Below are positions 1-53,320 of a stretch of 64,000 nucleotides of DNA, piece by piece. The position numbers and the translations under genes were made by a program. This DNA is from an uncultured cyanobacterium (GTDB taxonomy: Bacteria; Cyanobacteriota; Cyanobacteriia; Cyanobacteriales; CAWUOF01). A model generated the notes under the pieces. It was not told the origin of the DNA and did no database searches. It saw only the letters and a list, made by a program, of their open reading frames with translations. The stretch covers positions 4,704,001 through 4,768,000 of the forward strand of contig CAVUSO010000001.1 of the NCBI GenBank assembly GCA_963744145.1. The letters run 5' to 3'. Within the stretch, counting starts at the first letter, position 1. Each line of letters opens with the position of its first letter.

Positions 1-1737
1 TGGTGGCGACAAATTGATGACTCCAACTTGATAAAAAAGCTATCATCCAAATTAATAAAAACCGAGTTACGGGCTATTCGTAATGATTTAAACACTAGCG
101 ATGACAGTTTAGAAATAAAACTCGCTAATTTATTCAATCAATTGGCAGAACTGGGCGAAAACCCGTTTCTCTTGATTCTTGATGATTTTGAATGGAATCT
201 CGAACCCCGTCAAGGTCGATTTATTCTCAAGCCTGAAGTTGCGACAGTTTTGTCAGCATTAGTCTGGGCAATCCAAGAGACGGGAACTGGGCATCGGATT
301 TTGATTACCTGTCGCTATGAGTTTAATTCTGAGTTATTGGAATTTTTCTTCTCACAAGGTCTAGAATCTTTTAAAAAAGCTGAATTAACTAAAAAGCTGA
401 ATCGCCTAGAACATTTTAGTTCTGGTAAGCTCTCTGAATATCTACGCGATCGGGCGCTAAGTTTAGCCGATGGCAATCCTCGTTTACTGGAATATCTCAA
501 TGATGAAGTTTTAGGTAAACCAGATGCAGCAGCTAAATTAATCGAGCTAGAACAAAGTCCTGAACTGTGGAAAGACAAAATTATTTGGGAGGAACTGTAT
601 AAGGTTATTGATGAGCCATTACAACGGGTTATTAGCCATTGCCTAATCTACCAAATTCCTGTACCGATGATAGCTTTAGAAGGAGTTTGTGGCTCTCCCG
701 TAATAGCGTTGGAAAATCCCGTTTTTCGGCAGGGGAGAGCACGGAGCAGGGTAGAAGCTTATCACATAAGCTTATGGAACTTAAATAATTTTTACTTATC
801 ACCGCAAGTACGGGACAACCGAGTTTGTGACGCTCTTCCTAATTACCAACAACAGTTACAACGGGGTCAAAAACTGGGGCTTATTGAAATTAGTCCTGAA
901 ATTCAAGAAGAAAATCAAGTCTATTATGTCTCTCGAATTTTACCTCATATAATTCCCAATATTCGACTTTCTGAAGCACCAGAAGTTTATTCGTTGTACA
1001 AGAATGCTCATGAAATATTACATGAGTTATGGGGAAAAATTTACAATGAAAGTAAAGAAAAGTGGCAGGAGATTTTTCGGTTATTGTTTGCGGATAAAGA
1101 AAATCCAGAGCGATTCAGACAGGGATTCTTTAAAATGTTGGCAGTTCAATGCCATTTAGAAGCAGATGAAGCCTTAGAATCAGAAATGAGGAAACTAAAA
1201 GATGAGTTGTCAACGGAGAATTTTTGCGGTCAACTAGAGAACTATTTAAGTCAAAAAGAATGGAGAAAAGCTGATGAGGAAACTGCTTGGATCTTTTATC
1301 AAATGATGGTGCAGAAAGGCTACAAAAATTGGGATGAGTTATGTAAAAACTTTCCCAATGAAATCCTCAACCAGATTGACCAGCTTTGGGTTGATAACAG
1401 TAAAGGACGCTTTGGATTCAGTATTCAAAAACAAATTTGGGAAAGTGTTAATTCAGAAACACGTAAATCGGAAAAATTTGGAAACCTAATAGGTTGGAAT
1501 AAAATAGTAACAGAAAAATGCAATTGGATGTACTACAACACTTTGCTATTCTCGACTGAAGCTGCCACTGGAAGCCTTCCAGCCCTTTGTTATATGAAGG
1601 GAGAATTCATCAAGACAAATGGTGGAGTTTGGGTTGGTGGTTGGATGTTTTATTGTGTAGTTGGGTTTGGGTGGTTATGTGAGTGTGGGTGGGTTGGATT
1701 TCTTCTCTCACGCAAAGATATAAGTTATAAAATATAG
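1..1737 (+). CDS. NTPase-GUN4 domain protein, 5' part outside the window (paralog of 3563..6427, so probably also CHAT-fused)
   Basis: Frame is open from the window start. Walker B LILDDFE, GUN4-like motifs WRKADEET, IDQLWVDNSKGRFGFSIQKQIW and GSLP. Aligns with the 3' part of 3563..6427 and carries a 46-codon in-frame MITE insertion. Confidence 0.85.
   Translation, partial: WWRQIDDSNLIKKLSSKLIKTELRAIRNDLNTSDDSLEIKLANLFNQLAELGENPFLLILDDFEWNLEPRQGRFILKPEVATVLSALVWAIQETGTGHRILITCRYEFNSELLEFFFSQGLESFKKAELTKKLNRLEHFSSGKLSEYLRDRALSLADGNPRLLEYLNDEVLGKPDAAAKLIELEQSPELWKDKIIWEELYKVIDEPLQRVISHCLIYQIPVPMIALEGVCGSPVIALENPVFRQGRARSRVEAYHISLWNLNNFYLSPQVRDNRVCDALPNYQQQLQRGQKLGLIEISPEIQEENQVYYVSRILPHIIPNIRLSEAPEVYSLYKNAHEILHELWGKIYNESKEKWQEIFRLLFADKENPERFRQGFFKMLAVQCHLEADEALESEMRKLKDELSTENFCGQLENYLSQKEWRKADEETAWIFYQMMVQKGYKNWDELCKNFPNEILNQIDQLWVDNSKGRFGFSIQKQIWESVNSETRKSEKFGNLIGWNKIVTEKCNWMYYNTLLFSTEAATGSLPALCYMKGEFIKTNGGVWVGGWMFYCVVGFGWLCECGWVGFLLSRKDISYKI
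691..820. mobile_element. 130-bp MITE with ISL3-like ends, inserted in frame
   Basis: Imperfect TIRs GGCTCTCCCGTA / TACGGGACAACC. 8-bp direct repeat GAGTTTGT at 683-690 and 821-828. Absent from the paralog, which reads VVCAALPNY. Confidence 0.85.
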
Positions 1738-1790
1738 GCTTTTCAGGTATTTTGTCAAGCTAATTTTTTAGTTATTTTTTTACGAAAACA
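1701..1790 (+). other. Conserved GUN4-gene 3' element, copy 1 (TCTTCTCTCRCGCAAAG, stops in three frames, conserved downstream tract)
   Basis: Matches 6408-6494 (TCTTCTCTCRCGCAAAG ... TTTCAGG ... TTTGTCAAGC ... TTTTTACGAAAACA) although the upstream G/T tracts are unrelated. Confidence 0.8.
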
Positions 1791-1821
1791 TAAATAAGTA
1801 GGCGACTGAACAGCCACCTGG

Positions 1822-1896
1822 CATAGCAATTAGCCATCACAAATTTTTCAGCCACCTGGAGAATTTCTGAATTAGTCGATTTCCGTTCGTCCCAAG
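1822..1896 (-). pseudogene. Remnant of the 3' end of a RAYT/Y1-type tyrosine transposase gene
   Basis: High nucleotide similarity to 6659-6733 (CATAGCAATTAGCCATCACAAA..TTTTCAGC.ACCTGG.GAATTTCTGAATTAGTCG). Confidence 0.75.
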
Positions 1897-2079
1897 ATAT
1901 TAGTAACAAGTTAAGGTGATGGGTAAATTAGTTGCGATCGCACAATAGTATTAAATTTAATTCCTAACTGACAAATAGAAAGCGCGATCGCATTTTGTGG
2001 GAGAGCTGAGGTGCGATCGCGACTCAAAAAAATATTAATCAGGTATTTATTCTGTTAAAATTTTGAGATTGTTTTGAAT

Positions 2080-2502
2080 TTATAACTGAGTAGGAATAAT
2101 TAAATCTATAATCTGATTTTTATTCTGACGATAAACTAGAAAATCACGATCTAATGTTAATACACAACTGCCAGCAATTAACTCGGTCATTCTCACTAAA
2201 CAAGCATCGGCTAAAGACATTGGTACATTCTGATAACGTTGCAGCAGTTGTCTAATCGTTTCGCTGTCATCATTCAGTTGAAAAGGAATTTGAATAATTT
2301 TTCTACTGATTAAATTTATCACTGCGTCCTGACCTTTATAGACATCTTGCAACAGAAAACAAGTTTCTGTTATTACCCCTTCGCAAGTCAATAAATGTGG
2401 TTCAATTATTTTCCATTGTTCAATTGCCCAGGAATGTAGATTTTCTTTTTTATTAATAAATGCAACTAATACTCCTGTATCTAGTAACACTTTTTTTCTC
2501 AT
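2080..2502 (-). CDS. vapC: VapC/PIN-domain toxin
   Basis: N-terminal VLLDTGVLVA plus MSLADACLV and LTLDRDF PIN motifs. Overlaps the upstream small gene by 4 nt. Confidence 0.9.
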   Translation of the reverse strand: MRKKVLLDTGVLVAFINKKENLHSWAIEQWKIIEPHLLTCEGVITETCFLLQDVYKGQDAVINLISRKIIQIPFQLNDDSETIRQLLQRYQNVPMSLADACLVRMTELIAGSCVLTLDRDFLVYRQNKNQIIDLIIPTQL

Positions 2503-2753
2503 TTTTTACCCATTCCTTTTAGATATTCTTTATTCGTCCCTAAATCACCAGGGCCAAAATCAACAGATCCAGCAAATTCTTGGGCTGCTTCATAAGCAGA
2601 GATGGGTTGTTTTTCCTTAACTTGCTGTTTCTCCTGCTTTTGGGTTTTATATCGCAAAAACTCAATAAATTCCAAAACAGTATCCTGCTGTTCTATTGTT
2701 AGCATTTCAAGATAATCTAAAATTACATCTTTTTTATTGATCCCCATACTCAT
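2499..2753 (-). CDS. Putative antitoxin (DUF2281-like) of the VapBC pair
   Basis: 84 aa with VLEFIEFLRYK and C-terminal GPGDLGTNKEYLKG, directly upstream of the PIN gene. Confidence 0.75.
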   Translation of the reverse strand: MSMGINKKDVILDYLEMLTIEQQDTVLEFIEFLRYKTQKQEKQQVKEKQPISAYEAAQEFAGSVDFGPGDLGTNKEYLKGMGKK

Positions 2754-2770
2754 AGTTATATTCTCCTAAA

Positions 2771-3094
2771 TTAAATTAAATCGGGATCGATTCCTTGCGA
2801 TCGCAAATAAGCAGCCAATCGTTCTTTCTGTTGTTGTTCTCGATCAGCTCGTACCGTTTCAGCATCAGTCCGTTCGGTCGGATCAGTTTCACGCCAGTAT
2901 ATCCCACTATCTTGTCCGATCGCATATTGACCATCTGGATGAAGATTTTGGAGTGTAGTTGACCGGGAGTCAGTCAGCAAGATACATTGGGCATGTTCTT
3001 GAAAATTTTTCACGAAGGTGCCGTCAGATTCAGGTAATTGAGTATGATTGGGAAAAGGAGGGGGTAAGATGGTGGGGTCAAGACTTTGGACCAT
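2771..3094 (-). pseudogene. Uma2-family endonuclease with a large internal deletion
   Basis: The N-terminus (PNHTQLPESDGTFVKNFQEH...GQDSGIYWR) joins directly to the C-terminal coiled tail (ERLAAYLRSQGIDPD). The nuclease core present in 7356..8123 is missing. Confidence 0.8.
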
Positions 3095-3232
3095 AGTTCT
3101 GAGCGATCCACAACAGGAATGACGAGATGCTTGATTTAAGTATAGCAATTTGAGATTGAGCAGTTTGTTCAGGTTTAATACTTACTACTAAAAAATTAAT
3201 CCAAACAGCGAATATATAGAGGAGATCCACCA

Positions 3233-3553
3233 GTGAAAATTGAAATTGATGGTCAAGATGCGGTTAGCGCTGCTGAGGAATTGCTGAGAATTGAAGGGCT
3301 TGAAGGTAGTTGTAAAATAGTTGATAAAGTGGAGCGAGAAGGAATATTATTAGCTACGATCGCTACAATCGTAGGGATTACCAGTGGTGCTGTGACCATT
3401 GCTAAAGAAATATATGAGTGGTATCAGAAATACCAGAAATCTCAAGGGGCAAAGGCAAAAATTGAGAAAGTGCTAATTATTGGGTCTAATAATCGTCGTT
3501 TGTTGCTCAAGGATGCGACGGTAGAGCAGATTCAGAAGATTCTAGAAGATTAG
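3233..3553 (+). CDS. Small protein with one Gly/Ala-rich hydrophobic helix upstream of a CHAT protease (EACC1-like partner)
   Basis: SD AGGAG before a GTG start. Segment ILLATIATIVGITSGAVTIA preceded by VEREG. Lies 9 nt before the CHAT gene. The EACC1 resemblance is inferred. Confidence 0.6.
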   Translation: MKIEIDGQDAVSAAEELLRIEGLEGSCKIVDKVEREGILLATIATIVGITSGAVTIAKEIYEWYQKYQKSQGAKAKIEKVLIIGSNNRRLLLKDATVEQIQKILED

Positions 3554-3562
3554 GCAGGAACC

Positions 3563-6427
3563 ATGAAAATCCTCCATATTAGTTTAACTGAACAGGGTAA
3601 GGATTATGCTAGTTTGCGTTACTTTTGGAATCATCCTGCTGATTACAAAGAACACAGATTGTCTCTGGCTGAAATTAAAGATTTAGGCAATCAAGCAGAG
3701 ACTGATTACTATACTCGTATTCCTGTGGATTATGCGATTACTGGACAAGCACTCTACAACTGGTTAGATCAGAGCGATCGCGTGTTAGCCAATGCCTTAA
3801 ATCAGCCCCGTCAGGAAGGATTAGTAATTGCGATCGCGACGGATAAAGGAATGGCAAAGTTGCCTTGGGAATTATTGCATGATGGGAAGTGTTTCTTAGT
3901 AGAGAAAAGACCTGCTATTATTCCGGTGCGGTGGGTGCCTAATGGTCAACCGACGATCACGATCGCTAATTCTCCGCAAAATCGACATCTTAATCTGTTA
4001 TTTATGGCCACTTCTCCTTTAGGAGTTGAACCTGAATTAGATTATGAAGCAGAGGAAGGGAAAATTTTAAAGGCGACCCAGCGTACTCCAGTGAATTTGA
4101 GAGTAGAAGAAAGTGGCTCTTTAAGTGAATTGAGTTATCTGGTGCGGAAACAGGAAAAAGACCCAAACCATCCTGATGTTAGCTATTTTGATGTTTTTCA
4201 TTTAACAGGTCATGCAACTTATCAGGAGGGAAAACCCTGCTTTTTGACTGAAGACGAATATGGCAACCGAGTTGATAGTATTACCACAGAAATACGCGAT
4301 GCGCTGACATCTCCCTTACCGCCTTTAATTTTCCTCTCTGGTTGTCGAACTGGTTATTATTCTGAGGAAACAGTTCCCTCAATGGCAGAAGAATTATTAA
4401 AGATGGGAGGAACAGCAATTTTAGGATGGGGGGAAAGAGTCCGTGATACTGATGCAACAGCAGCTGCGTGTAAATTATATTGGCATTTGTCTCAGGGGGA
4501 AGCGGTTACAGATGCTCTATTTTCTACCTATCAAGCCTTGATTCGACAACAAGCACACGATTGGCATAAATTACGGTTATATGTGGCAAATACCTTACCC
4601 CAGATGTTAGTAACTCCTGTAAACACAAGAGGACGAACACAATTGCCTAAACCGAAATTTAGGGATAGTGATCAGCAGTTAAAAGTGGCAAGGGGTGAAG
4701 ATTTTGTTGGTCGTCGCCGTCAGCTCCAGAACTGTTTGCGAATACTAAAGATAGATAATGACAAAGTAGGAGTATTAATTCATGGCATGGGGGGATTGGG
4801 AAAAAGTAGCATTGCCATTCGACTGTCGGATCGGCTATATGAACATGAAAAAGTTCTGTGGCGACAACAAATTGATGCCTCAAGCTTGATAAAAGAGCTA
4901 TCTGATAAATTAATTAAACCAACGTTACGCGATATTCGTGATGATTTAAACAGCAATGACAGATTATATTTTAAGATAGCTAATCTATTCAATCAATTAG
5001 CAGAACTGGGTGAGAAACCGTTTCTCTTGATTCTTGATGAATTTGAATTGAATCTAGAACCCCGTCAAGATCGATACATTCTCAAACCTGAAGTTGCTAC
5101 AGTTTTAGAAGCATTAGTTAGGGCAATCCAAGATACGGGAACTCAAAATCGAATTATTATTACCTGTCGCTATAAGTTTGATTTTAATTTATTGAATTCT
5201 TTTTTCTCTCAAGGTCTAGAAGCTTTTCAAAAAGCTGAATTAACTAAAAAACTGAACCGCTTAGAACATTTTAGTTCTGATCAGCTCTCTCAAGAGCTAC
5301 GCGATCAATCGCTAAGTTTAGCCGATGGCAATCCTCGTTTACTGGAATATCTCAATGATGAAGTTTTAGGTAAACCAGATGCAGCAGCTAAATTAACGGA
5401 ACTAGAACAAAGTCCTGAACAGTGGAAAAACAAAATTATTTGGCCAGACTTGTATAAGCTTATTGATGAGCCTTTACAACAGGTTCTTAGTCATTGCTTA
5501 ATCTATGAAATTCCTGTACCAATGGAAGCTTTAGAAGTAGTTTGTGCTGCTCTTCCTAATTACCAACAGCAATTACATCGAGGGCGTGAACTGGGATTCA
5601 TTGAAATCAGTCCTGACGTTCAAGCAGAAAATCAAGTCTTTCGTTTCTCTCGAATTTTACCTCATATTATTCCTAATATCCGACTTCCTGAAGCACCTGA
5701 AGTTTATTCTTTGTACAAGAAAGCTTATGAAAAGTTACATCAGTTGTGGGGAAACAAACAAAATGAAAGTCCGGAAAAGTGGCAGGAAATTTTTCGGTTA
5801 TTGTTTGCCGATCAAGAAAATCCAGAACGATTCAGACAGGGATTCTATGAGATGTTGGCAGTTCAATATAATTCAGAAGCAGATCAAGCCTTAGAATCAG
5901 ACCTGAGACAACTGAAAAATGAATTATCAACAGATAATCTTTGCCGTCAATTAGAGGATTATTTAAGGCAACAAGAATGGAGAAAAGCTGACGAGGAAAC
6001 TGCCTGGATTTTTTATCAAGTGATGGTGCAGCAAGACTATGAAGATTGGTCCGAGCTATGCAGAAACTTTCCCTGCGAAACCCTCAAGCAGATAGATCAG
6101 CTTTGGGTTGATAACAGTCAAGGACGTTTTGGATTCAGCATTCAAAAGCAAATCTGGGAAAGTGTGGGCGGACATCCTGATGCAAAATATGAAATATATG
6201 AAAAATTTTGTGATAAAGTAGAATGGAGAAAAGAGGGCGAATGGTTGCTTTATAGTAACCTTACTTTTAATAATAACACTACTCCAGAGGGCTACCTCCC
6301 AGTCCTACCGCTCGCTCGCTTTCGCGAGTTTGGGGGTTGGTTGGGATTTATGGGGATGGGATACAAGGGGGATTGGAGATTTGTGAGGGTTGTTGTTGGG
6401 GTGGGTCTCTTCTCTCGCGCAAAGTAA
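3563..6427 (+). CDS. CHAT protease - STAND/AAA NTPase - GUN4 domain protein
   Basis: CHAT LPWELLHD with His in HLTGHA and Cys in LSGCRT. Walker A GMGGLGKS, Walker B LILDEFE. C-terminal GUN4-like motifs (WRKADEET, GRFGFSIQKQIW, GYLP). Confidence 0.9.
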   Translation: MKILHISLTEQGKDYASLRYFWNHPADYKEHRLSLAEIKDLGNQAETDYYTRIPVDYAITGQALYNWLDQSDRVLANALNQPRQEGLVIAIATDKGMAKLPWELLHDGKCFLVEKRPAIIPVRWVPNGQPTITIANSPQNRHLNLLFMATSPLGVEPELDYEAEEGKILKATQRTPVNLRVEESGSLSELSYLVRKQEKDPNHPDVSYFDVFHLTGHATYQEGKPCFLTEDEYGNRVDSITTEIRDALTSPLPPLIFLSGCRTGYYSEETVPSMAEELLKMGGTAILGWGERVRDTDATAAACKLYWHLSQGEAVTDALFSTYQALIRQQAHDWHKLRLYVANTLPQMLVTPVNTRGRTQLPKPKFRDSDQQLKVARGEDFVGRRRQLQNCLRILKIDNDKVGVLIHGMGGLGKSSIAIRLSDRLYEHEKVLWRQQIDASSLIKELSDKLIKPTLRDIRDDLNSNDRLYFKIANLFNQLAELGEKPFLLILDEFELNLEPRQDRYILKPEVATVLEALVRAIQDTGTQNRIIITCRYKFDFNLLNSFFSQGLEAFQKAELTKKLNRLEHFSSDQLSQELRDQSLSLADGNPRLLEYLNDEVLGKPDAAAKLTELEQSPEQWKNKIIWPDLYKLIDEPLQQVLSHCLIYEIPVPMEALEVVCAALPNYQQQLHRGRELGFIEISPDVQAENQVFRFSRILPHIIPNIRLPEAPEVYSLYKKAYEKLHQLWGNKQNESPEKWQEIFRLLFADQENPERFRQGFYEMLAVQYNSEADQALESDLRQLKNELSTDNLCRQLEDYLRQQEWRKADEETAWIFYQVMVQQDYEDWSELCRNFPCETLKQIDQLWVDNSQGRFGFSIQKQIWESVGGHPDAKYEIYEKFCDKVEWRKEGEWLLYSNLTFNNNTTPEGYLPVLPLARFREFGGWLGFMGMGYKGDWRFVRVVVGVGLFSRAK

Positions 6428-6494
6428 TCTGTAAGATATAACAATTTCAGGCCATTTGTCAAGCTTAATTTTGGTACTAATTTTTACGAAAACA
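6408..6494 (+). other. Conserved GUN4-gene 3' element, copy 2
   Basis: Homologous to 1701-1790. Stop codons occur in all three frames within 6425-6441. Confidence 0.8.
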
Positions 6495-6620
6495 TCGGCT
6501 TTCCGCCAATTCGATACCTGGCACTGTTCCGTCTGTCCGTTTTGGCTGTCTGTCTGTTGTTGGAATATATATTTTAGACAGAATAAAGACAGAATGGCCA
6601 GGTGACCAGAACAACACAAA

Positions 6621-6953
6621 CTAAGAATCATTGAAAAACTGTGCAGCGACCTTGGGGTCATAGCAATTAGCCATCACAAACTTTTCAGCTACCTGGCGAA
6701 TTTCTGAATTAGTCGGTTCCCATTCATCCCAAGGCAATTTCATCTGTCCAGGAATACGTCTTTTCGTTTCCTTTGCACTCAAAACCTTGGGCAGTAATTT
6801 ACTTCCCCAGTGACAACGGTTTTCCGGTTTGGGTTGAGGTTTATATTTCTTACAGAACTTGCGATATTTCTCGGCACATTCATCCAAACTTTTCCCCAGA
6901 GCCAAAAAAGCAGGATGCCACTGAGTTAGTCCATCATCGCTCAATCGGTCATA
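6621..6953 (-). pseudogene. C-terminal part of a cyanobacterial RAYT/IS200-like (Y1) tyrosine transposase, 5' truncated by a MITE
   Basis: YDRLSDDGLTQWHPAFLALG...CAEKYRKFCKKYKP...VAEKFVMANCYDP resembles, from recollection, the C-terminus of cyanobacterial Y1_Tnp proteins. The frame runs into the MITE end at 6954. The HUH core is absent. Confidence 0.65.
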
Positions 6954-7307
6954 TACAGCAGATTCGGTCGTTGATGAAGTACAGTAAGATTTGGCATGAA
7001 TGGCGATCGGTTAAAGTCGCTTGTGAGTGATCTGTGTTGGTTGGGCAGGTTTATGATAGTTATCTGTTTGCAGCAGAATTGATTGGTGAACCTGCCCCTA
7101 CAAATCCCGGTTGATTGTGATCATAAATTCATTCACCTGCCCCTACAAATCCTGTTAATCTTGTAATCCTCTAATCCTGATCGATTTTTTGGTGAATCTC
7201 TGTAGGGATGGGTCTACTGAAATTTTTGCTATTTACCCACTAATCATCACGCACCCACCCCCACCCACAGATCAATCTGCTCAATGTATCTTCATAGTCA
7301 ATTGGTA
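6954..7307. mobile_element. Chimeric MITE carrying REP-like repeats
   Basis: Left end TACAGCAGATTC...TGATGAAGTACA resembles the ends of 16246-16572. Right end TGTATCTTCAT..AATTGGTA resembles the end of 44635-44931. Internal GGTGAACCTGCCCCTAC repeats. Confidence 0.75.
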
Positions 7308-7355
7308 TAAGTAAAATAAAAATAGACACTCCCATCAGGACAAGTGTGAACAACC

Positions 7356-8123
7356 ATGACTTCTGTGATCAAAACGACATCAAGGTTAAGACCAGATTTA
7401 CCCGACCATACTGAATTACCTGACTCCGACGATAACTTCGTGAAAAATTTTCAGGAACATCCTCAAAGTATTCTCCTCACCGATTCGATTCAACCAGTAT
7501 TAGACCGTTTACATCCAGATGGACAATATTGTATCGGACAGGACAGTGGTATTTATTGGCGATTAACTGAACCACCTCTAGATGGAGCTGAAGCACCGGA
7601 TTGGTTTTATGTCCCCGATGTCCCCCGGACACTGAATGGACAACTACGACGATCTTATGTGATCTGGCAAGAATTAACTCCCCCAGCGATCGCGATCGAA
7701 TTTGTCTCCGGAAATGGGAAAGAAGAAAGAGATCCTACTCCCTTAAAGGGAAAATTTTGGGTCTATGAACAAGGAATTAAAATCCCCTATTATGCGATCT
7801 ATGAAGTCCAGAAAGCGAGGGTGGAAGTCTATCAACTCCAAGACGATCGCTATGTCAAATTAAGTCCAAATTTCCAGGGACGTTATCCGATTCACTTGAT
7901 GGGAGTAGAATTAGGAATCTGGTCCGGAAGATATCAAACCATGCAACTACCCTGGTTAAGATGGTGGGATGAGCAAGGAAACTTGTTATTAACGGGAAGT
8001 GAAAGAGCCGAAATCGAGCAACGGGAAAAACAACTAGCCCAACAACAACTTGAACAGGAACGACAACGAGTTGAACGTTTAGCGGCTCAATTACGCAGTT
8101 TAGGGATTGAACCGGAATTATAG
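7356..8123 (+). CDS. Uma2-family (PD-(D/E)XK) endonuclease
   Basis: EAPDWFYVP, AIEFVSGNG, KFWVYEQ and LRWWD motifs with a coiled-coil tail. Confidence 0.9.
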   Translation: MTSVIKTTSRLRPDLPDHTELPDSDDNFVKNFQEHPQSILLTDSIQPVLDRLHPDGQYCIGQDSGIYWRLTEPPLDGAEAPDWFYVPDVPRTLNGQLRRSYVIWQELTPPAIAIEFVSGNGKEERDPTPLKGKFWVYEQGIKIPYYAIYEVQKARVEVYQLQDDRYVKLSPNFQGRYPIHLMGVELGIWSGRYQTMQLPWLRWWDEQGNLLLTGSERAEIEQREKQLAQQQLEQERQRVERLAAQLRSLGIEPEL

Positions 8124-8178
8124 TTGACTCGGTGGAGCCGATCGGATCTTATCTAATCAGCAATGATCATAAAACCTG

Positions 8179-8206
8179 GTAGGGGCATATTGCAATATGC
8201 CCCTAC
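8179..8206. repeat. GTAG-type REP palindrome between convergent genes (possible bidirectional terminator)
   Basis: Perfect palindrome GTAGGGGCATATTGCAATATGCCCCTAC. Confidence 0.7.
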
Positions 8207-8216
8207 TGTCAAAAAA

Positions 8217-9101
8217 TTATTTCCGCTTAATCCATACCTTTAACGATTCAATTCGCAAGGACTGTCCCCTTGTTCCGCAATATTGACCATTGGAACACAC
8301 CGCATAGTCCCCTACATTCTGGATATGAGCAGTGTAAAAAACATCATATTTAGATGCTTCTGGACCAGTTAGCTGAATTGAAAAACCTTCAATTCGTCGT
8401 TCTTGATTTCTCGTCCCAGCAAACTTTCCTTCTTCTAACCATGCTGTATCCCCAATTCCTTGAATATGGGCTTGATATCTCAGACTTAATCCTGGCACAG
8501 GTGGATGGATATTGATCTGAAATCCTTCTAAACGGAGGGATTGTCCACGAGTGCCCACCATTTCATTATCTTTGAATTCCCGATCGCCCAAACTCTGGAT
8601 ATTAGCCAAAATTTTTAGAGATACGTCTGAATTTCCTACTGTACTCAAACCTGTGGTAGTGAATCCAGGAGAAACTCCAGTCACAGCACTTTTTGGGTCA
8701 GGCTCATCAAATCTCGGTAGAATAATCACTTCTGGAGTTGCATCCGGGGACGTGGGTTGTCCAAAAATAAAGATATCCGATTGTGGTGTAGGTGCCTTGA
8801 CAGGTGCTGATATTTGATTCACTGGTGGATTTTGGGCGTCAGTCACCTGATTTACTAACAACTCTAAATCTTTCAGGGCAGAAATTTCCCCAGCTTTTGG
8901 GGTCAATGCTGTTAATGTTTGCAAATGTAACTGGGTAAATTCGGTTTGGTAATTTGCCAGTTCCGCTATTAAATTTCCTGATGGTGGGATACCTTTTGCT
9001 TGAAGTTCTTTACCTGCTTGGGATAGACGCTCTCCCAAACTTGAAAATTTTTCTTTAAGTAGGCTTAGTTGTTGGGACAAATCTTTATGGGCTTGGTTCA
9101 T
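8217..9101 (-). CDS. Coiled-coil protein with C-terminal clostridial hydrophobic-W (ChW)-like repeats
   Basis: Three repeats of the AHIQGIGD..W..G...GTRGQSLRxE type. Confidence 0.75.
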   Translation of the reverse strand: MNQAHKDLSQQLSLLKEKFSSLGERLSQAGKELQAKGIPPSGNLIAELANYQTEFTQLHLQTLTALTPKAGEISALKDLELLVNQVTDAQNPPVNQISAPVKAPTPQSDIFIFGQPTSPDATPEVIILPRFDEPDPKSAVTGVSPGFTTTGLSTVGNSDVSLKILANIQSLGDREFKDNEMVGTRGQSLRLEGFQINIHPPVPGLSLRYQAHIQGIGDTAWLEEGKFAGTRNQERRIEGFSIQLTGPEASKYDVFYTAHIQNVGDYAVCSNGQYCGTRGQSLRIESLKVWIKRK

Positions 9102-16245: not shown

Positions 16246-16572
16246 TACAGCATCTTCCAGGTTTATGAAGTATAGCAGTGTTGTTTGTAATGTCAGATGG
16301 GTGAGGTTCATTCAGGTGATCTGTGGGGCAGGGCGGGTTCATTAAGGTTATTTGTGTGTGGCAAATTCATCGGTGAACCCGCCCCTACAGGGGATAAAAA
16401 TATTCGGATCTGGGATTATTTACCAAAAAATCGATGAATTTATGATGATAATCAACCAGGATTTGTAGGGGCGGGTTCACCAATCAATTCTGATCCAAAT
16501 CGATCACCATCATAAACCCGCCCAACCAAACGAGATAACTGAATGTACTTCATCAATGTAGAATCTGCTGTA
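16246..16572. mobile_element. MITE with TACAGCA ends and internal REP-like repeats
   Basis: TACAGCATCTTCC..TTATGAAGTA at left, TACTTCATCAA..GAATCTGCTGTA at right. Internal GGTGAACCCGCCCCTAC / GTAGGGGCGGGTTCACC. Confidence 0.75.
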
Positions 16573-17241: not shown

Positions 17242-20200
17242 TCAAGTCTCCTCTAACCAAGTTTGAATCGCAGATAATAAATTGGCTTGATGAGGTGGAA
17301 AGCCTTTTAACGGTGCTTCTAGGGGTTCATTGGTTAGCCAGGCGATCGCCAGGGTATCAGTGAGTTGGTAACAAAAGTCGATCACTTCTGGGGTGGGATG
17401 TTCGCAATGGGTAAGCAGGAGGTTGAGTTTTGGTAAGTTGAAGGTTAATTTGCATTGATCAATGCTATAACATAGGTCAGCGGGGGTGGCAACTCTGGGA
17501 TACATTTGCTCAGGAAATGCTTGTTTCCAGATGCGTCTGCACAGGATTTGGGCAATTTCGCCTTCTCTGGTTTCCGTTGCTAGAATGTCGGCATTGATAC
17601 AAACAATTGGCAGATTTTGCAATTTGATGGAAAGTTCTATCTGTTGATTGTCTAGATTATCAACAGTTGAATTATTTCCCACTGGAATCTGTTCGGTAGT
17701 TTCTGGATGGTAGATAGTGGTGGGATGATGCCATGCTTGATAAAATTGGGGATAGGGAAGTTTCATAGCACAGTCCCAAACAACTTTGTAGCATTGATCA
17801 AATCTGTCAAAGTTACTTTTGTAAACTTCATTACTGAGACAGTCTTTTAAAGCTGAGACAACCCCTGCATATTGTTCAGGTGTGGTTAATATTTTCTCCA
17901 AACTGGATACTACTTGCGAACGAGTAGATTCATCCTCAGTGGTGGCCAGAAGTTTGACTAAAGTGTCGATCAGACCACGGGTATTTTTACTGTCAGTAGT
18001 TGACAGATGTTTGACTAAAGCGGTGAATACTTTCGGATGATGTTTGACTAAAATGGTGAGCGCTTCAAGATTTCGAGCAATTTTCTCAAAAATCTTTGCC
18101 GCTAAACGACGGGTATTTTCACTGTCAGTGATTGACAGATATTTGACTAAAGTAGTGAGCGCTTCCGGACGTTTGACTAAAAAAGCAGTGAGCGCTTCCG
18201 GATTTCGAGCAATTTTCTCAAAAATCTCTATCATTTTCCCCAAAATCTCTGCCGCTTGCCGACGGGTCAATTCATTTTCATTGGTTTTCAGAAGTTTAAC
18301 TAAAGCGGTGAGCGATTCCGGATTTCCTGGAACAATTTTATCCAAACTACCTGCCGCTTTCAAACGGGTTAATACATTTTCACTGGTTTTTAGAATTTCG
18401 ACTAAAGCCGCGATCGCTTCCAGATTTCCTGGAGCAATTTTCCCCAAACTATCTGCCGCTTGCCAACGGATATCTTCATCGTCAGTGGTTGCCAGAATTC
18501 TGACTAAAGCGGTGATCACTGCCTGATTTCCTGGATCAATTTCCTCCAATATTTTTGCCGTTTGCCAACGGGTAAATTCATTGTCAGTAGTTGCCAGAAT
18601 TCTCACTAAAGTGGAGATCGCTTCCAGATTTCCCGGAGCAATTTTCCCCAAACTATCTGCCGCTTGTAAACGGATCAATTCATTTTCACTGTTTTTCAGA
18701 AGTTCGACTAAAGCCGCGATCGCTTCCGGATTTCCTGGCGCAATTTTCTCCAAACTATCTGCCGCTTGCTGACGGGTAGATTTATTGTTAGTGGTTGCCA
18801 GAATTCTGACTAAAGCAGCGATCGCTTCCAGATTTCCTGGAGCAATTTTCCCCAAACTATCTGCCGCTTGCCAACGGATATCTTCATCGTCACTGTTTTT
18901 CAGAAGTTCGACTAAAGCAGTGATCACATCCAGATTTCCTGGAGCAATTTTCCCTAAACTAGATGCTGCTATCTGACAAATAACTTTATTTTCATTGGTT
19001 TTCAGAAGTTCGACTAAAGCAGCGATCACCTTCAGATTTTCTGGAGCAATTTTCCCCAAAATATCTGCCGCTAGACCACAGGTAATAAATTCATTTTTAT
19101 TGGTTTTCAGAAGTTTGACTAAAGCGGTGATCGCTTCCGGATTTCCTGGAGCAATTTGCTTCAAACTATATGCCGCTTGCAAACGACAACGAATAAATGA
19201 TGTATCATTATTGGTTGCCAGAATTCTGACTAAAGCGGCGATCGCTTCCAGATTGCCTAGAGCGATTTCAGCCAAATGCTCTACCGCCTCACTAAAATTA
19301 TCTGGGCAATGTTCGAGGATTTCACTAAGTTTTGTAATAAGTTCTGTAATGGCTAGTTGTCGAATCGTTTCTGGTATTATCTCTCTTGCCTCTGCTTCAA
19401 TTCGATAAAAATAAGTTCTCCATTCCCTTTTCTCAATATTAAAATCACCAAATGCCCATTTAATTACCTGTTTAACAATTTGTGAAGCCAGGGAACAATT
19501 TTTAAATTCATTAATTGCTGCTGCTGCTATAAAATAGGGTTGATATTCATAAAAATCTCTGCATCCATCATCAAAATTTACTAACGCCTGAATCAACCTC
19601 TCCTTTTCCTTATTTTCAATATTCTCACGCCCCACCCACAACAAAATGACATGCTTCCATTGCGGCTGAAAAATCCGATATTCTTTCCCATCAATCGGAA
19701 AATCATCATGATCTTTAGGTAAAAAATAATCCCAATCATCCACTGCCAATGCTGCAAAATACTCCTGAAATGTGGCATGATAAAAGGCATACACTGGCTC
19801 CCTAAGATTTTCGGCTGCTACCCCCACCTCATTTAACCAACCCAACCTTAATGCCTGATCTAAGAGCGAATTCTCATTCCGGTTACCCAAATATTGACAA
19901 ATAAACTGATGGGTTAACCGAAACCTTGTTCCCTCTCCATCTAGGGACGCTTTTGCTAACTTTCCTAAACCTGCATTCAAACTATCTATTTCCGTTTTTG
20001 TCATAGGAAACTCTTTTTTCTTCCAATCATACATATAGTCCACAAAACTCTGATACAGCTCGGCAGTTGTATCGGGTAAACTTCCCTCTTGCCAAATCGA
20101 TGATAATAAGGTTAACCGGAGGGGATTGCGGCATAAATCCTTAATCCGTTCTTTCCCTGGGGTTTGCAGTGCTTCCCACAAAGATTCACCTAACTTCATT

Positions 20201-21363
20201 TCTGGTTTTTCCCCAGACAAACTCCGAAACCACCTTTGGTTAAACTGCTGCATTTGTTCATCCTGAAATGGTTGAGTCAGATAGGTTTGAAAACCCTGTA
20301 ACTGGGATGGGTTACCTTGCCACAGATTCAATCGACAGGAGATGATTAATTGAGATTGTGTCACCCAACCTTGCAACGATAAAGCATCTCTAGCTGTATC
20401 GTTCATTTCATCCAATCCATCCAAGAGTAACCAGACTCTACCCTCCTTAAATTTTTGCTCCCAGTCTGCCTTAATTTCTTCGGTGGGATTTATAAAAGCA
20501 TCTTCCAGCCAAATTTCTTGTAAATAGTCCCCCAAGCGTTTATTACCCAAATTTCCGAGGGATATCCAAATCACTAAATCATCGGTTTCTTCTAATAACC
20601 AAAATGCTAATTTCTGTAATAAAGTAGTTTTTCCGGCTCCGGGTTCCCCACTAATAACAAGATTTTTTTGTTTCCCTTGGCTAAGTACTTCCTGGAGAAA
20701 CTCACCGTAGGTAAACCGTTTTTCCACTTCCTGTCGATCATAAAATTCCGAACCGCGCTCTGGAGCGATATCTTGTTTGTGTGCTTCATGGTGATGGGGC
20801 TTCAGTTTAACCAGTGCTAAATCAATAAATAATTCTTCTTCAACTAAATTCCGATTAAACTGGGCTTTTAATAAACTATTACTGCTTAACTGTTTATGAC
20901 TTTCCAACATCCGTAGACAAACATCTTGCCACTCCTCAAGTTTTAGTTGGCGATTTTCTCCTATGTTGATATCAATTGATGGCAAATTTATTTCGTTTTC
21001 AGATTGCCATTGCGGATATTTTTCGTTCCAAAGCCAATTAAAAATATCTCGCCAGGCTTCTTGTCCTTTCGGTGGTCTTGCTTTCTTTCTTTTTTGGCTT
21101 CCTGGGTTTATTGTTTGCGAAGAAATCGGACAATCTTGATTGTCATAAAATTTTTGACAAATGGTCTCTACGTGGTATGTAATACTTTGTTGTATATGCA
21201 ATACTTTTTTTTCTTCTTCAACAATACTTTTTAGGAGAGTCATATTTTCCTTATGTTCATTCTCTTTATCGAACCTTAGCAGAAACATTTTTTCTTTTTT
21301 TTCTGTAATGCCATATTGTCTAGCAATTGTTTTGAGAAAAACCTGCTCTCGTGACTGTTTCAT
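17242..21363 (-). CDS. NACHT NTPase with a HEAT-repeat array and a C-terminal alpha/beta (NCAB1-like) domain; NLR-like
   Basis: Walker A GEPGAGKTT, Walker B LLLDGLDE, NPLRL and FYHATFQEYFAA. About 34-aa repeats (AADSLGKIAPGNxEAIxALVxLL). ATG 21363 preferred over the ORF-track start at 21423. Confidence 0.9.
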   Translation of the reverse strand: MKQSREQVFLKTIARQYGITEKKEKMFLLRFDKENEHKENMTLLKSIVEEEKKVLHIQQSITYHVETICQKFYDNQDCPISSQTINPGSQKRKKARPPKGQEAWRDIFNWLWNEKYPQWQSENEINLPSIDINIGENRQLKLEEWQDVCLRMLESHKQLSSNSLLKAQFNRNLVEEELFIDLALVKLKPHHHEAHKQDIAPERGSEFYDRQEVEKRFTYGEFLQEVLSQGKQKNLVISGEPGAGKTTLLQKLAFWLLEETDDLVIWISLGNLGNKRLGDYLQEIWLEDAFINPTEEIKADWEQKFKEGRVWLLLDGLDEMNDTARDALSLQGWVTQSQLIISCRLNLWQGNPSQLQGFQTYLTQPFQDEQMQQFNQRWFRSLSGEKPEMKLGESLWEALQTPGKERIKDLCRNPLRLTLLSSIWQEGSLPDTTAELYQSFVDYMYDWKKKEFPMTKTEIDSLNAGLGKLAKASLDGEGTRFRLTHQFICQYLGNRNENSLLDQALRLGWLNEVGVAAENLREPVYAFYHATFQEYFAALAVDDWDYFLPKDHDDFPIDGKEYRIFQPQWKHVILLWVGRENIENKEKERLIQALVNFDDGCRDFYEYQPYFIAAAAINEFKNCSLASQIVKQVIKWAFGDFNIEKREWRTYFYRIEAEAREIIPETIRQLAITELITKLSEILEHCPDNFSEAVEHLAEIALGNLEAIAALVRILATNNDTSFIRCRLQAAYSLKQIAPGNPEAITALVKLLKTNKNEFITCGLAADILGKIAPENLKVIAALVELLKTNENKVICQIAASSLGKIAPGNLDVITALVELLKNSDDEDIRWQAADSLGKIAPGNLEAIAALVRILATTNNKSTRQQAADSLEKIAPGNPEAIAALVELLKNSENELIRLQAADSLGKIAPGNLEAISTLVRILATTDNEFTRWQTAKILEEIDPGNQAVITALVRILATTDDEDIRWQAADSLGKIAPGNLEAIAALVEILKTSENVLTRLKAAGSLDKIVPGNPESLTALVKLLKTNENELTRRQAAEILGKMIEIFEKIARNPEALTAFLVKRPEALTTLVKYLSITDSENTRRLAAKIFEKIARNLEALTILVKHHPKVFTALVKHLSTTDSKNTRGLIDTLVKLLATTEDESTRSQVVSSLEKILTTPEQYAGVVSALKDCLSNEVYKSNFDRFDQCYKVVWDCAMKLPYPQFYQAWHHPTTIYHPETTEQIPVGNNSTVDNLDNQQIELSIKLQNLPIVCINADILATETREGEIAQILCRRIWKQAFPEQMYPRVATPADLCYSIDQCKLTFNLPKLNLLLTHCEHPTPEVIDFCYQLTDTLAIAWLTNEPLEAPLKGFPPHQANLLSAIQTWLEET

Positions 21364-21443
21364 ATTCCCTTCACTGCTTTTTACCTTAGCACTGATTGTA
21401 ATTAAAGTGGAAGAAAATGTCAAGAGGAATCCATAAAAATCAT

Positions 21444-32137: not shown

Positions 32138-35100
32138 ATGAATTCACAACGACGCGAAGATTATTACAGATTGATCTACCAATTATTAACCTGTCGGAAT
32201 GGAGAACAGCCAGAAATTATGATGGCTCACCCAGATTTAATCGATGATGGGTTAGTGGAAGCTCTAAAAGAAATAGCCACCCTGATGATGCAGCAAGGCA
32301 ATCAACAATATGCGAATTATTTAAACTATGTTGCCGAGCATCTGCATTTAGAACCATTTTTTAAAAGTAGTGTTACTAACCCAAAAAATTCTATTCAGGA
32401 ACCATCCCTAAACCCAAACCTCTTAAAAATGCCGATTAATTTACAGGAAATGCTGCAAATTTTCGGGGAAAATTGGGGTGATACGCAAAGACTTTACCAA
32501 CTACTATCTCCCTATTTAGATAAACTGGATGACAATTTTGTTGAGCAGTTTCGTAACTGGATATTTTCTATAAAAAATTCCCAATTCTCAGAAGTTTTAC
32601 ATAACTTAGCAAAAGTAATAAGCAACTTTAGCAGTCTCCTTTGGCATTGTCCTTTGGGGAATAGAGCGATCAACTTAGAAATTGCTCTGATCGGGCGTGA
32701 GTTTTTTGAATTGGTTGTTAGGCGCGATGAATTTCCCGAAGAATGGGCAAATAACCAATTCGATCAAGCCCCTATTTACCGCCATCGGATTCGAGGAAAT
32801 CGTGCTGATAATTTGGAAAAAGCAAGATCGGCTTGTGAGCAAGCTTTGCAAGTATATACTCGAGATCGTTTCCCAGAAAAATGGGCGAGCATACAAAGTA
32901 ATTTAGGTCTAGTTTATAATAACAGAATTGTTGGGGAAAAAGCGGCTAATCTAGAAAAAGCGATCGCTTGCTATGAAACAGGATTACAAGTTGTTAACCG
33001 CACTCAACTTCCTGAAATTTGGGGTATACTTCAAAATAATCTGGGTGATGCCTATTTGAACAGAATTCAGGGTAATAAAACAGAGAATATAGAGAAGGGG
33101 ATCGCTTGCTATCAAGTTGCACTACAGGTGCGTACTCGATCTGCATCTCCCTATTATTGGGCTAGTAGCCAATTTAGCCTTGGTAATGCCTATAATAAAA
33201 GGATTTTAGGTGACAAAAAACAGAATCTAGAAAAGGCAATTTCAGCATATATTAACGCTTTAGAAGTTTATACAATTTCTGATTATCCTGAGCGATGGGC
33301 AGGAGCAAAAAGCCAGCTGGGAAATGTCTACGGCGAAACAGGTCAAATCACTGAAGCACTTGACTGTTTCCGTGCTGCGTTACAAGTCTTTACTCCCAGT
33401 GCTTTTCCCAGAGATTGCATACTAACTGGATCGAATTTAGGCAAAATAGCCTTAGCTGCTGGTATGAAAGCAGAAGCTTTTGAAGGTTTTGCAATTGCAA
33501 TTGAAGCTGTTGAACAAAGCCGCCGTTGGGCTGGTACTGCTGTCCACCAGCAAGAAATTACCGAAGAGGTGTTTGCCTACGCAAACATGGTAGTTTTTTG
33601 TATCATCAATGGAGAGAAAGATAAAGCCAGAGAATATGCCAAGCGTTCTGCTTCTCAAGAAATTTTAAAACTTTTAGATACTGATGAAATTCAACAGATT
33701 TACTCAAAGTCAGAATTTATCGGACGGATATTGCAAGCAACTGCTGAAAATGGCTCAAAACCGGAATTAGTCTATCAAATTTTAGAAAGTAATATCAATA
33801 AATTAGACGATTCTTTTGTTCAGAGCTTGCAAGATATTGGAAATACTTTGGGTATGATGCCATCATTCCAAGCTATTAACGGTGCTGCAACTATTTTAAG
33901 TTTTAGCCATCTGGTTCAGCAATTTGCACAAGGCGATCGCGTAATTAATTTTAAAATTGCTTCTACAGGTTATGAGGTAGCTGCCACTGTTTTTACTAAA
34001 GAAGCTTTTCCCGAACATTGGGAAAATATTCAAAATGCGGTACGAGAACTATTTCATCTTCAACTATTTGAAGCAGTATTAGAAAATAAAAATCCTAAAG
34101 ATTTAGACTCTTTACTAGAAGAAAACAAGCACAAACTTGATGAGCGATTTGCTACTGTATTGCGATTGAAAACAACAGCTAGGCTATCTGAAATGCCGCC
34201 AGAGAATGCAAAGTATATTGCTGAAATTCTTATACATTTGAGTGCTATTATCCAAAATTTTCCCCAAGGTAAAGTGGCAAATAATTTAGAAATTGCCATT
34301 ACAGGGTATGAGGTAGCCTCTACTGTCTTAACTCGCGAAGCATTTCCAGAACAATGGGCTTTATGGCAAACTTTTCTGGGTAATGCTTATCACCGTCGAG
34401 TTAAGGGTGATGCGGCAGAAAACTTAGAAAAAGCGATCGCTCATTTGCAGAATGCCTTACAAATTAATCCCCGCGAAGCATTCCCAAAACGTTGGGCAGA
34501 GATTCAAAATAATTTGGTCATTGCTTACTGCTATCGGATTCGTGGCGATCAATTAGAAAATGCAGAATTGGCAATTGCCGCAGGTATGGCTGCAATGGAA
34601 GTGTACACCCGTGAAGCATTCCCGGAAGGATGGGGAAAAATTCAAAACAATTTGGGTATTGTGTATCGCGATCGCGTTGGTGGTGACAAGGCGGAAAACT
34701 TGGAACTAGCGATCGCTTGTTATCAAAATGCTTTGTTAATCCGTACCCGTGAGGATTTTCCAAAACTGTGGGCGGAAACTCAAATGAATTTGGGATCTGC
34801 CTATCGACATCGGCGCAAAGGTCACAAGGCAGAAAATTTGGAACTAGCGATCGCTGCCAACTTTGCCGCCTTACAAGTTTACACCAAAGAAACTTTTCCT
34901 AGAGATTGGGCTGGCGTTCAAATGAATTTGGGCAATGCTTATCTTGATCGGCAGAAAGGAAATTCCTTTGAGAACCTAAAAAACGCTGCACTTGCCCACC
35001 AAGCTGCCTTAGAAATCTTTACCTTAGATGAATTTCCCCAAAATTGGGCAATGACCCAAATGAACTTAGGAAATACCTATGAATTACAATGGCACGAGGA

Positions 35101-52949: not shown

Positions 52950-52980
52950 CTCTTACAGCCTTAACTTGTCATCAATGAAT

Positions 52981-53243
52981 GTAGGGGCGTTCGCGAGAGC
53001 GTGCCGTAGGCATAGCATTCGGGCGATAATTAATCGCATAAAACCATTAATATTATATCCGAATGCTTCGCCCTTCTTCTTTGCCGAATCCATCAAAACA
53101 TTCTTCATTGAACCGGATTTATATATAGTTGATCTGTTGGTTTCATAGATGGTGAGGGCAAAGCATTTCGGTAATATTTTCTTCGTTTCAGTAATAATTT
53201 ATTCGCCGAAATGCTTTGCCCCTAAGGTTAACTGAACTGGATT
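52981..53243. repeat. REP/MITE cluster between tandem CHAT genes
   Basis: GCATTCGG...CCGAATGCTTCGCCC and GGGCAAAGCATTTCGG...CCGAAATGCTTTGCCC hairpins with TGAACCGGATT and TTAACTGAACTGGATT ends. Confidence 0.7.
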
Positions 53244-53259
53244 GGCACTTAATATAAGT

Positions 53260-53320
53260 GGAAATTGAATTACTAGAACTAGCCGAGAGTTTACTAGAAA
53301 AATTAGCAAAAATTTGGGAT
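53260..53320 (+). pseudogene. Duplicated 3' end of the DUF1822 gene
   Basis: GAAATTGAATTACTAGAACTAGC.GAGAGTTTA.TAGAAAAATTAGCA.AAATTTGGGAT matches 49061-49120. Confidence 0.85.

Follow-up and report, generated by a model that had tools for sequence, protein, structure and literature searches.

The 64-kb stretch of uncultured cyanobacterial DNA analysed here (contig CAVUSO010000001.1, positions 4,704,001 to 4,768,000; the whole stretch is referred to as the window) raises the question of how two paralogous genes ending in a GUN4 sensor domain, which lie about 2 kb apart in flanks that align at ~75-90%, have come to lose all similarity behind that domain and to regain it a short distance downstream. 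A first-pass annotation of the window had suggested that these tails are diversified by a nuclease of the Y1/HUH transposase type, encoded convergently behind them. Comparison with 78 loci from many cyanobacterial genera identifies the window as two decayed copies of a widespread cyanobacterial module, in which a sensor domain is followed by a replaceable tail, a cap that terminates the protein in any of three reading frames, a fixed block of DNA and a convergent Y1 gene; the pattern is far beyond chance, since it recurs in dozens of independent loci. From this arrangement we infer that the Y1 protein drives the turnover of the tail. The module is present twice in the window, with all of the elements that had been listed for it, at the following positions.

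1..1737, plus strand: gene A, the 3' 1737 nt of a CHAT-NTPase-GUN4 gene whose 5' end lies beyond the window; Pfam GUN4 at 1.9e-25
1582..1700, plus strand: hypervariable tail A, 119 nt, G/T-rich in its 3' two-thirds; unalignable with tail B and without a further copy in the window or the loci
1701..1737, plus strand: three-frame cap A, of the CHAT-type variant; stops at 1721, 1728 and 1735, spaced 7 nt
1738..1790, no strand assigned: rest of conserved block A, breaking off after ..ACGAAAACAT; the TACCTGGCAC end is absent by motif search
1823..1906, minus strand: Y1 relic A, 28 codons, equivalent to residues 216-243 of a 255-aa Y1 protein; tblastn E 4e-7 to 1e-7
3563..6427, plus strand: gene B, a complete CHAT-NTPase-GUN4 gene of 954 aa (P0002); Pfam CHAT, AAA_16 and GUN4
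6302..6407, plus strand: hypervariable tail B, 106 nt, G/T-rich; unalignable with tail A and without a further copy in the window or the loci
6408..6441, plus strand: three-frame cap B; stops at 6425, 6432 and 6439, spaced 7 nt
6442..6526, no strand assigned: non-coding part of conserved block B; terminal GATACCTGGCAC at 6513-6524, an exact motif match
6527..6620, no strand assigned: extra A-poor, T/G/C-rich DNA of ~94 nt in copy B only, between the block right edge and the Y1 stop
6624..6968, minus strand: Y1 relic B, with its stop at 6621-6623, equivalent to residues 141-255 of 255; tblastn identity 82-83%, E ~5e-64 to 4e-64

The identification of the host as a CHAT-NTPase protein with a GUN4 domain is borne out by a Pfam scan of 36 open reading frames (ORFs) of the window, in which GUN4 (PF05419) scores 90.1 bits in gene A and 104.5 bits in gene B (curated cut-off 29.2) and gene B also has CHAT and AAA_16. 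The host, a signalling or conflict protein, joins a CHAT protease to a STAND-type NTPase and has the GUN4-like sensor domain at its C terminus. The PF05419 matches stop at profile positions 131 (A) and 126 (B) of 141, near the GxLP motif, which is GSLP at 1570-1581 in gene A and GYLP at 6290-6301 in gene B. The full-length product of gene A is P0071 (1005 aa), from the same contig and with an identical tail. The first-pass annotation described 119 and 106 nt after GxLP as unalignable, which stands, and took GxLP as the left boundary, which holds in other sets of loci but not in this pair, where divergence begins ~130 nt 5' of the motif, near 1450 and 6168. The alignment of the two copies does resume, as described there, at TCTTCTCTCRCGCAAAG, a sequence present in the window at 1701 and 6408 only (chance expectation 0.01), and runs on through a non-coding tract to 1790 and 6494. 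Since the tails differ by 13 nt, the common motif is translated in different frames: cap A is used as LLSRKDISYKI*, its other frames reading FFSHAKI* and SSLTQRYKL*, and cap B as LFSRAK*, with SLLSRKVICKI* and SSLAQSNL* unused. Block B is alignable without large gaps to 29 other loci. The convergent transposase fragments are likewise present, with their limits corrected to 1823-1906 and 6624-6968, and both are broken, as had been stated: only residues 216-243 (A) and 141-255 (B) are kept, so that the catalytic half is missing from each. Neither the HUH motif nor the catalytic Tyr is left in relic B, and the minus-strand ORF fragment at 6621..7010 has no Pfam or NCBIfam match of its own. Judged by their sequences, both Y1 copies of the window are dead, and both of its tails would accordingly be either fossils or the work of an enzyme supplied in trans. 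The extra DNA at 6527-6620 contains short internal inverted repeats and has no counterpart in copy A or in the other loci; in copy A, a deletion spans the same right edge of the block.

The 78 loci (numbered L, with proteins numbered P) come from one genome scan with one genome per species, and include ~6 kb of flank on each side, for a total of 785 kb of locus DNA and 85 GUN4 instances. A search with the GUN4 region of gene B returned 260 proteins; among the 120 matches listed, the domain forms the C-terminal end of kinases, caspase-like peptidases, CHAT-NTPases, TPR, vWA and FGE-type proteins, and is followed after GxLP by a Gly/Trp/Val-rich segment of a few to more than 60 residues that finishes in one of a small set of end motifs. 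Canonical Gun4, the Mg-chelatase cofactor, is a stand-alone protein of ~230 aa that has an N-terminal domain of its own and in which only a short C terminus of fixed length follows GHLP. The domain considered here is not of that kind, being fused to CHAT and NTPase domains, and its alignments to 1y6i, 1z3x, 7e2r and 4ykb end at GxLP. In L008, two genes with unrelated N-terminal parts share a 470-nt GUN4 segment (1418-1887 and 6676-7145, 95% identity) that ends exactly at GxLP, beyond which the tails are wholly different; the GUN4 domain thus behaves as a separate recombining unit. Tandem GUN4 domains occur in L056, L062, L014 and several proteins, and in these the inner tail and cap are retained and read through, in the LFSRVETCK frame, into a Pro-rich linker. 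The 30-60 nt before the GUN4 start (70 instances) form a linker with A+C of 0.63, encoding Pro, Thr and Gln, the complement of the tail bias described below. The idea that this linker is a mirror-image junction was dropped because the bias is moderate and such linkers are common; it may be an ordinary interdomain linker.

Between the tail and the untranslated DNA lies a conserved cassette, approximately TCTCTTCTCTCGCGTCGAGACTTGTAAAGTGTAACATNTAAGG, which three-frame translation around the stop codons shows to be used in different frames by different genes. It is carried by 63 of the 85 GUN4 instances (25-nt core, at most 6 substitutions), in which the tail length modulo 3 is 0, 1 or 2 in 26, 20 and 17 cases, and the frame-independent end cassette that had been proposed from the two window copies is therefore real and general. 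The three endings, LFSRVETCKL*, LLSRRDL* and SSLASRLVKCNI*, each have their own stop, at a spacing of 7 nt, so that a tail of any length gives a complete protein. The stops at +23, +30 and +37 are all kept in 50 of the 63 cassettes, and all three endings, each running into its stop, are found in 34 (two in 13, one or none in 16). Two of the frames share the pattern hydrophobic-x-S-R-hydrophobic-x-x-C-x-hydrophobic, offset by 7 nt. When the endings of 121 proteins are classified, the main type is represented by 24 LFSRVETCKL-like, 23 LLSRRDL-like and 20 SLASRLVKCNI-like sequences and the CHAT-type variant by LFSRIKT (6), LLSRQDLTYKV (6) and SLASRLNL (10), with 32 left unclassified by these patterns. 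Over 300 locus pairs the cassette is 0.84 identical at all positions, compared with 0.57 at the third codon positions of the domain core. GUN4 subfamilies that lack the cassette (L030, L062, L006, L049, L053) encode the same protein motif with other codons, indicating that the motif is a requirement at the protein level and that the cassette is an overprinted solution to it. We know of no natural precedent for a DNA segment that is maintained as a C terminus in three frames and used about equally in each. The 5' half of the cap is partly duplicated within the tail in L031, L039 and the end of P0015 (..SLFSRRKTFISLFSRKDL), which suggests repeated breakage and repair at the junction.

The tail, ~30-140 nt located directly 3' of GxLP, was compared in 79 locus pairs having at least 80% nucleotide identity in the domain core. 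Seven of these pairs share a tail (identity at least 0.9), whereas in the other 72 tail identity is 0.27-0.63, compared with 0.46 +/- 0.08 (maximum 0.63) for shuffled tails, and no pair falls between 0.65 and 0.9. In the same pairs the cassette is 0.8-1.0 identical, and the next 80 nt are up to 0.97 identical. Between species, tails are thus either unchanged or wholly replaced, unlike the continuous hypervariation produced by diversity-generating retroelements (DGRs). The 72 pairs with differing tails use the same frame in 29 cases and different frames in 43. A Nostoc trio and a Microcoleus/Tychonema set have near-identical flanks with sharp boundaries at the GxLP codons and at the cassette; what lies between these boundaries is unrelated in sequence and measures 42, 111 and 142 nt in one group and 49-116 nt in the second. 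The composition of the tails (G 0.43, T 0.33, A 0.12, C 0.11) is equal at all three codon positions, and at the third positions of GGN and GTN codons G+T reaches 84% and 78% in tails, compared with core values of 45% and 51%; the bias thus resides in the DNA itself and does not stem from the choice of amino acids. Tails are of low complexity, with G-runs of up to 12 (L067), local repeats (L064) and GGTGG, GTGGG and TGGGG as the commonest 5-mers, and 16 of 61 contain a canonical G-quadruplex motif. Despite these runs and short repeats, an in-frame stop is present in only 3 of 63 tails, and all three frames end in the manner typical of the family. Growth of the tail at the cap side only was considered and rejected, the gradient being weak (G+T 0.69 in the first 10 nt, ~0.8 beyond). 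The conclusion of the earlier annotation that neither a reverse transcriptase (RT) nor a template is present is upheld within the DNA scanned: the 36 window ORFs contain no RT family, no tail recurs within its own locus or the window, the tail of L029 has no match in phage or plasmid collections, and among 1830 pairs no non-orthologous tails reach 0.7 identity. In the GUN4 subfamilies that lack both cassette and Y1, tails are alignable (0.68-0.87, 4 pairs) but the downstream DNA is not.

Behind the tail, conservation extends well beyond the coding sequence. The block, of which the cassette is the first 40 nt, is ~125 nt long, aligns without gaps in 30 loci and ends abruptly after G[AT]TACCTGGCAC; this motif follows within 300 nt in 31 of 63 instances, its position being exactly +109 in 25 loci, and the exact 12-mer GATACCTGGCAC is present in 14 of 78 loci, always on the plus strand at the block end. 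The non-coding part has an identity of 0.63, as against 0.57 at synonymous sites, with invariant patches and no indels. The motifs of the block occur solely at GUN4 gene ends within the 785 kb of loci and the window. A search of both strands of this DNA for the cassette gave 62 matches. Recorded GUN4 ends account for 61 of them; in L014, where the other one lies, the in-frame stop comes 16 nt before the cassette. No cassette is located beyond a Y1 gene, where a displaced older cap would lie. Rfam gave nothing at gathering score in 4 loci and two matches at chance level in positions 1-9000 of the window. It was considered whether the block is hidden coding sequence on the Y1 strand, and this was rejected, as its conservation has no 3-nt periodicity (0.94, 0.84, 0.90); the end motif reads QCQVS in some Y1 proteins and VPGIG in others. 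The only palindrome that recurs in the block is the 5-bp TCTCG-CGT-CGAGA.

The prediction that Y1 homologs are enriched convergently behind GUN4 genes was found to hold. When 120 Y1 proteins were compared by tblastn with the 78 loci, 69 of which extend 1200 nt or more past the domain, 30 proved to carry a Y1 gene or relic (30/78, or 30/69 of those with sufficient sequence), and all 30 are on the minus strand, convergent and directly behind the GUN4 domain or block, in a zone amounting to 7% of the strand-specific search space. Apart from these, Y1 was matched just once, by a second copy beside the first in L034. Coverage is full length in 9 loci, in L020 in two pieces, and the rest are relics, mostly C-terminal. 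Relics with an N-terminal part placed against the block right edge are present in L002 (1711-2121), L043 (2269-2517) and L073 (~6524-6602), so that one deletion breakpoint recurs at the GGCAC boundary. On cyanobacterial plasmids, all four full-length Y1 copies face a GUN4-like gene with cap and block; at three non-cyanobacterial plasmid Y1 loci there is no recurring partner gene. Y1 is absent from the GUN4 subfamilies that lack the cassette. No conserved sequence is present 5' of the Y1 start codon in 8 full-length copies. In L019 (~7340-7520), about 8 tandem 21-nt units (GTTACAACATTAAGTCTTACA) lie just past the 5' end of an intact Y1 gene, and the unit resembles the stop-codon part of the cap together with the start of the block.

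The fragment at 6621..6953, proposed to be part of a Y1/HUH protein, does belong to such a family. When longer proteins were sought, 128 of 221 candidates proved to be relatives, and the 120 matches listed (239-301 aa) all contain PF01797; an alignment of 40 full-length proteins shows no exception to the HUH motif (NHxHY) or to Tyr122 (40 of 40). The model of the N-terminal domain is confident, and its best Foldseek match is 4er8, the Escherichia coli REP-associated tyrosine transposase (RAYT) with a repetitive extragenic palindromic (REP) hairpin, followed by the IS608, ISDra2 and IS200 transposases (4er8, 2vjv and 2xm3 at E ~1e-6). The RAYT label that had been given to it is accordingly right as to fold and Y1/HUH class but is not sustained by the NCBIfam RAYT model NF047646 (REP_Tyr_transpos), on which the full-length homolog P0123 scores 64.5 bits with a cut-off of 80, or by a REP-type hairpin; on the IS200 model the family scores 24.3 bits with a cut-off of 55. 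The C-terminal domain is modelled with low confidence, and gave its own family and weak leads in an Atlas search and no sequence match in the PDB.

In the account that we favour, and to which we would assign a probability slightly short of even, the Y1 enzyme acts at the block, the tail is turned over there and the cap completes every outcome. The enzyme would bind the block and nick and rejoin single-stranded DNA at its edge; DNA would be lost and gained at the nick, turning over the tail; the DNA gained might come from slippage or untemplated synthesis; and the cap would be kept functional in all frames because the frame is redrawn at each event. A role for Y1 is suggested by its strict adjacency and by the otherwise unexplained block between the two genes, as well as by other GUN4 subfamilies, from which Y1, cap and hypervariability are missing together; the deletion breakpoint shared by the relics in L002, L043 and L073 at the block right edge also speaks for it. 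In its widest form, this account describes RT-free targeted protein diversification, in which a domesticated HUH/Y1 nickase, junctional DNA and a three-frame cap would provide a bacterial counterpart of antigen-receptor junctional diversity on the STAND, caspase and kinase conflict sensors of cyanobacteria, a proposal that we put forward tentatively, as possible rather than probable. It should be noted that a number of observations weigh against the favoured account. Nicking, insertion and variation within populations are hypothetical here; most modules are without an intact Y1 gene (full-length coverage in 9 of 78 loci), and loci without any trace of Y1 conserve the cap just as well (0.857, 28 pairs). 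Known Y1 enzymes recognise hairpins, but RNAalifold gives a consensus structure of 0 pairs for 30 block sequences, and 14 single-strand DNA folds of the block, covering both strands, have z values of -0.42 to +1.17, so that a hairpin of the REP or insertion sequence (IS)-end type is unsupported. Orthologous tails are unchanged across species in 7 pairs, the tails of L029 and L058 have ordinary base composition, and we know of no enzyme that makes G/T-rich DNA. In the structure model of the GUN4 domain, the predicted local distance difference test (pLDDT) is <50 for tail and cap, and the model is therefore uninformative on docking of the cap to the domain. All three tails with in-frame stops adjoin Y1 (2 of the 7 tails next to intact Y1 compared with 1 of the other 56; p = 0.03, post hoc) and G+T is slightly higher beside intact Y1 (0.82 compared with 0.76-0.77; p = 0.045, post hoc), but these statistics involve 7 loci and comparisons picked after seeing the data.

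The principal alternative, which we regard as somewhat unlikely, is that Y1 is a bystander, either co-copied or a selfish element homing to the block, that the tails change through slippage and instability of G-rich DNA combined with diversifying selection on a ligand-contacting loop, and that the cap is a buffer against frameshifts. The G-runs, repeats and quadruplex motifs of the tails are as expected from slippage, and the decay of most Y1 copies, the conservation of the cap without them and the lack of a hairpin for the enzyme to recognise fit a bystander. Codons made of G and T only specify Gly, Val, Trp, Cys, Leu and Phe in every frame, and the bias could therefore be a frame-robust encoding. 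Slippage, however, leaves unexplained why the 85 non-coding nucleotides of the block have a fixed length and an invariant end motif, and why Y1 keeps strictly to one place and one orientation in 30 of 30 loci; it predicts intermediate similarities, of which the 79 pairs contain none between 0.65 and 0.9; and the tails of L029, L058 and L068, although of ordinary composition, have been replaced just as fully. Nor does a bystander account for the fact that GUN4 subfamilies lacking Y1 also lack hypervariable tails. Alternatively, block and Y1 could constitute an IS200/IS605-like mobile element that inserts in GUN4 tails and completes the gene in any frame with its own end cap, tail length then reflecting the landing site; a comparable strategy is that of integrative elements which supply their target gene with a new 3' end. 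The block edges are sharp on both sides, the cap is conserved as DNA across orders, Y1 decays as transposase genes do, and its fold is nearest to RAYT and then to the IS608 and ISDra2 TnpA proteins. Such an element should, however, displace the old tail end and cap, and none of the 62 cassette matches in the loci and window lies beyond Y1; in addition, the 8 full-length copies have no second end, no subterminal hairpins were found, and block and GUN4 core diverge together. These features make a mobile element an improbable explanation. An ordinary history of tandem duplication together with downstream DNA, followed by fast divergence or gene conversion of a C-terminal loop, would suit the paralogs of the window, with their proximity, their aligned flanks and a divergence that begins before GxLP, and two local copies alone are no independent evidence of co-occurrence. 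As cap, block and Y1 recur in dozens of loci in different genera and architectures (kinases, caspase-like peptidases, TPR, vWA, CHAT), duplication accounts for the two window copies and not for the module itself, for which it is very unlikely. Templated diversification, whether through a retroelement of the DGR kind or through gene conversion with silent cassettes as donors, appears equally remote. The GUN4 domain is present in the same kinds of protein as the FGS domains diversified by DGRs, according to PMC7159879 and PMC7517822, and the cap and GxLP region could serve as homology anchors; however, no RT family or second tail copy was found in the DNA scanned, no non-orthologous tails are similar, the L029 tail is unmatched in phages and plasmids, and the variation involves length and all four bases rather than adenine-templated sites only.

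Comparison with known systems shows partial likenesses in each case. As in RAYT/REP systems, the neighbouring enzyme is a single-domain HUH/Y1 protein, with 4er8 as its best fold match, and it is encoded beside a short conserved DNA element and not inside a two-ended insertion sequence. The motifs NHVH, WE and YIHANP, the length and the C-terminal domain resemble class 2 subclasses that, according to PMC6006769, have a conserved C-terminal domain and no REP. Unlike RAYTs, the family falls below the NCBIfam cut-off, and many block/Y1 copies are possible per genome, each paired with a GUN4 gene and most decayed; unlike REPs, the block has no palindrome or hairpin and is confined to GUN4 ends within the DNA scanned. 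The catalytic fold and the decay of the copies as transposase genes are shared with IS200/IS605 elements, but the module has no second conserved end or subterminal hairpins, Y1 has a position fixed relative to one host domain, and the score is below the IS200 cut-off. The resemblance to DGRs lies in a C-terminal variable region of a ligand-binding domain, found in cyanobacterial kinase, caspase and CHAT/STAND proteins, and in a conserved DNA element directly after it; the block may be analogous in this respect to the DGR initiation site. DGRs, however, rewrite adenine-templated positions and keep the frame, whereas GUN4 tails vary in length and frame and require a three-frame cap, and neither an RT among the 36 window ORFs nor a template repeat in loci or window is present. 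Contingency loci likewise have low-complexity G-rich DNA within an ORF, where a change of length shifts the frame, but in the GUN4 module each of the three frames would yield a product, so that switching on and off would not be expected, and the whole segment is replaced rather than a repeat count altered. V(D)J joining offers no more than an analogy, with variable-length, biased junctional DNA between conserved segments and a downstream segment usable in three frames; its machinery is unrelated, and somatic events within a population are not evidenced here.

No prior description of the module was found in the literature searched, which contains no publication that joins GUN4 with IS200 or a tyrosine transposase; searches for the three ending peptides gave one unrelated match, and those for three reading frames or a hypervariable GUN4-like domain gave nothing relevant. 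To our knowledge, the Y1/HUH relatives have no agreed cellular role. PMC7159879, PMC8195603 and a bioRxiv preprint describe GUN4 as a tetrapyrrole-sensing domain of cyanobacterial conflict systems, and the words transposase and frameshift are not present in PMC7159879; PMC7517822 reports IS200/IS605 transposases near 9 DGR variable proteins. Irrespective of mechanism, the module presents one stretch of DNA that is functional as a C terminus in three frames used about equally, a sharply bounded sensor segment that is swapped wholesale between close relatives while its flanks are conserved, and a Y1/HUH family coupled to one host domain, with distance and orientation both fixed. Should the turnover be driven by Y1, diversity generators would gain a new class next to the DGRs, a domesticated tyrosine transposase would acquire a function, and the GUN4 sensors of these immune-like systems would have to be read as variable receptors and not simply as sensors of tetrapyrroles. 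As a design element, the three-frame cap could be useful in frame-tolerant gene fusions.

Several further features of the window deserve mention. Gene A has, relative to gene B, a 144-nt in-frame insertion at 693-836 with GCTCT[CT]CC at both sides; it contains the inverted repeats GCTCTCCC/GGGAGAGC, is read through as 48 added residues and looks like a small palindromic mobile insert within an ORF. Between the GUN4 modules lie a PIN-domain toxin gene (2080-2502) and an overlapping VapB-like antitoxin gene (2499-2753), and a 106-aa ORF (3233-3553) without a Pfam or NCBIfam match, 9 nt 5' of gene B, may encode an adaptor that serves the CHAT-NTPase protein. The place that the lost half of Y1 would take (7029-7152) is occupied by an inverted repeat, GGGCAGGTT...AACCTGCCC, and by two copies of a 17-nt repeat, CCTGCCCCTACAAATCC, of which a copy with one mismatch is located at 16459-16475. 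Conflict-system genes are dense in the window (17242-21423, 32138-36952, 49182-57582 and 58148-60151) and include NACHT-HEAT, three TPR-CHAT (two of them after DUF1822 genes) and NB-ARC-TPR.

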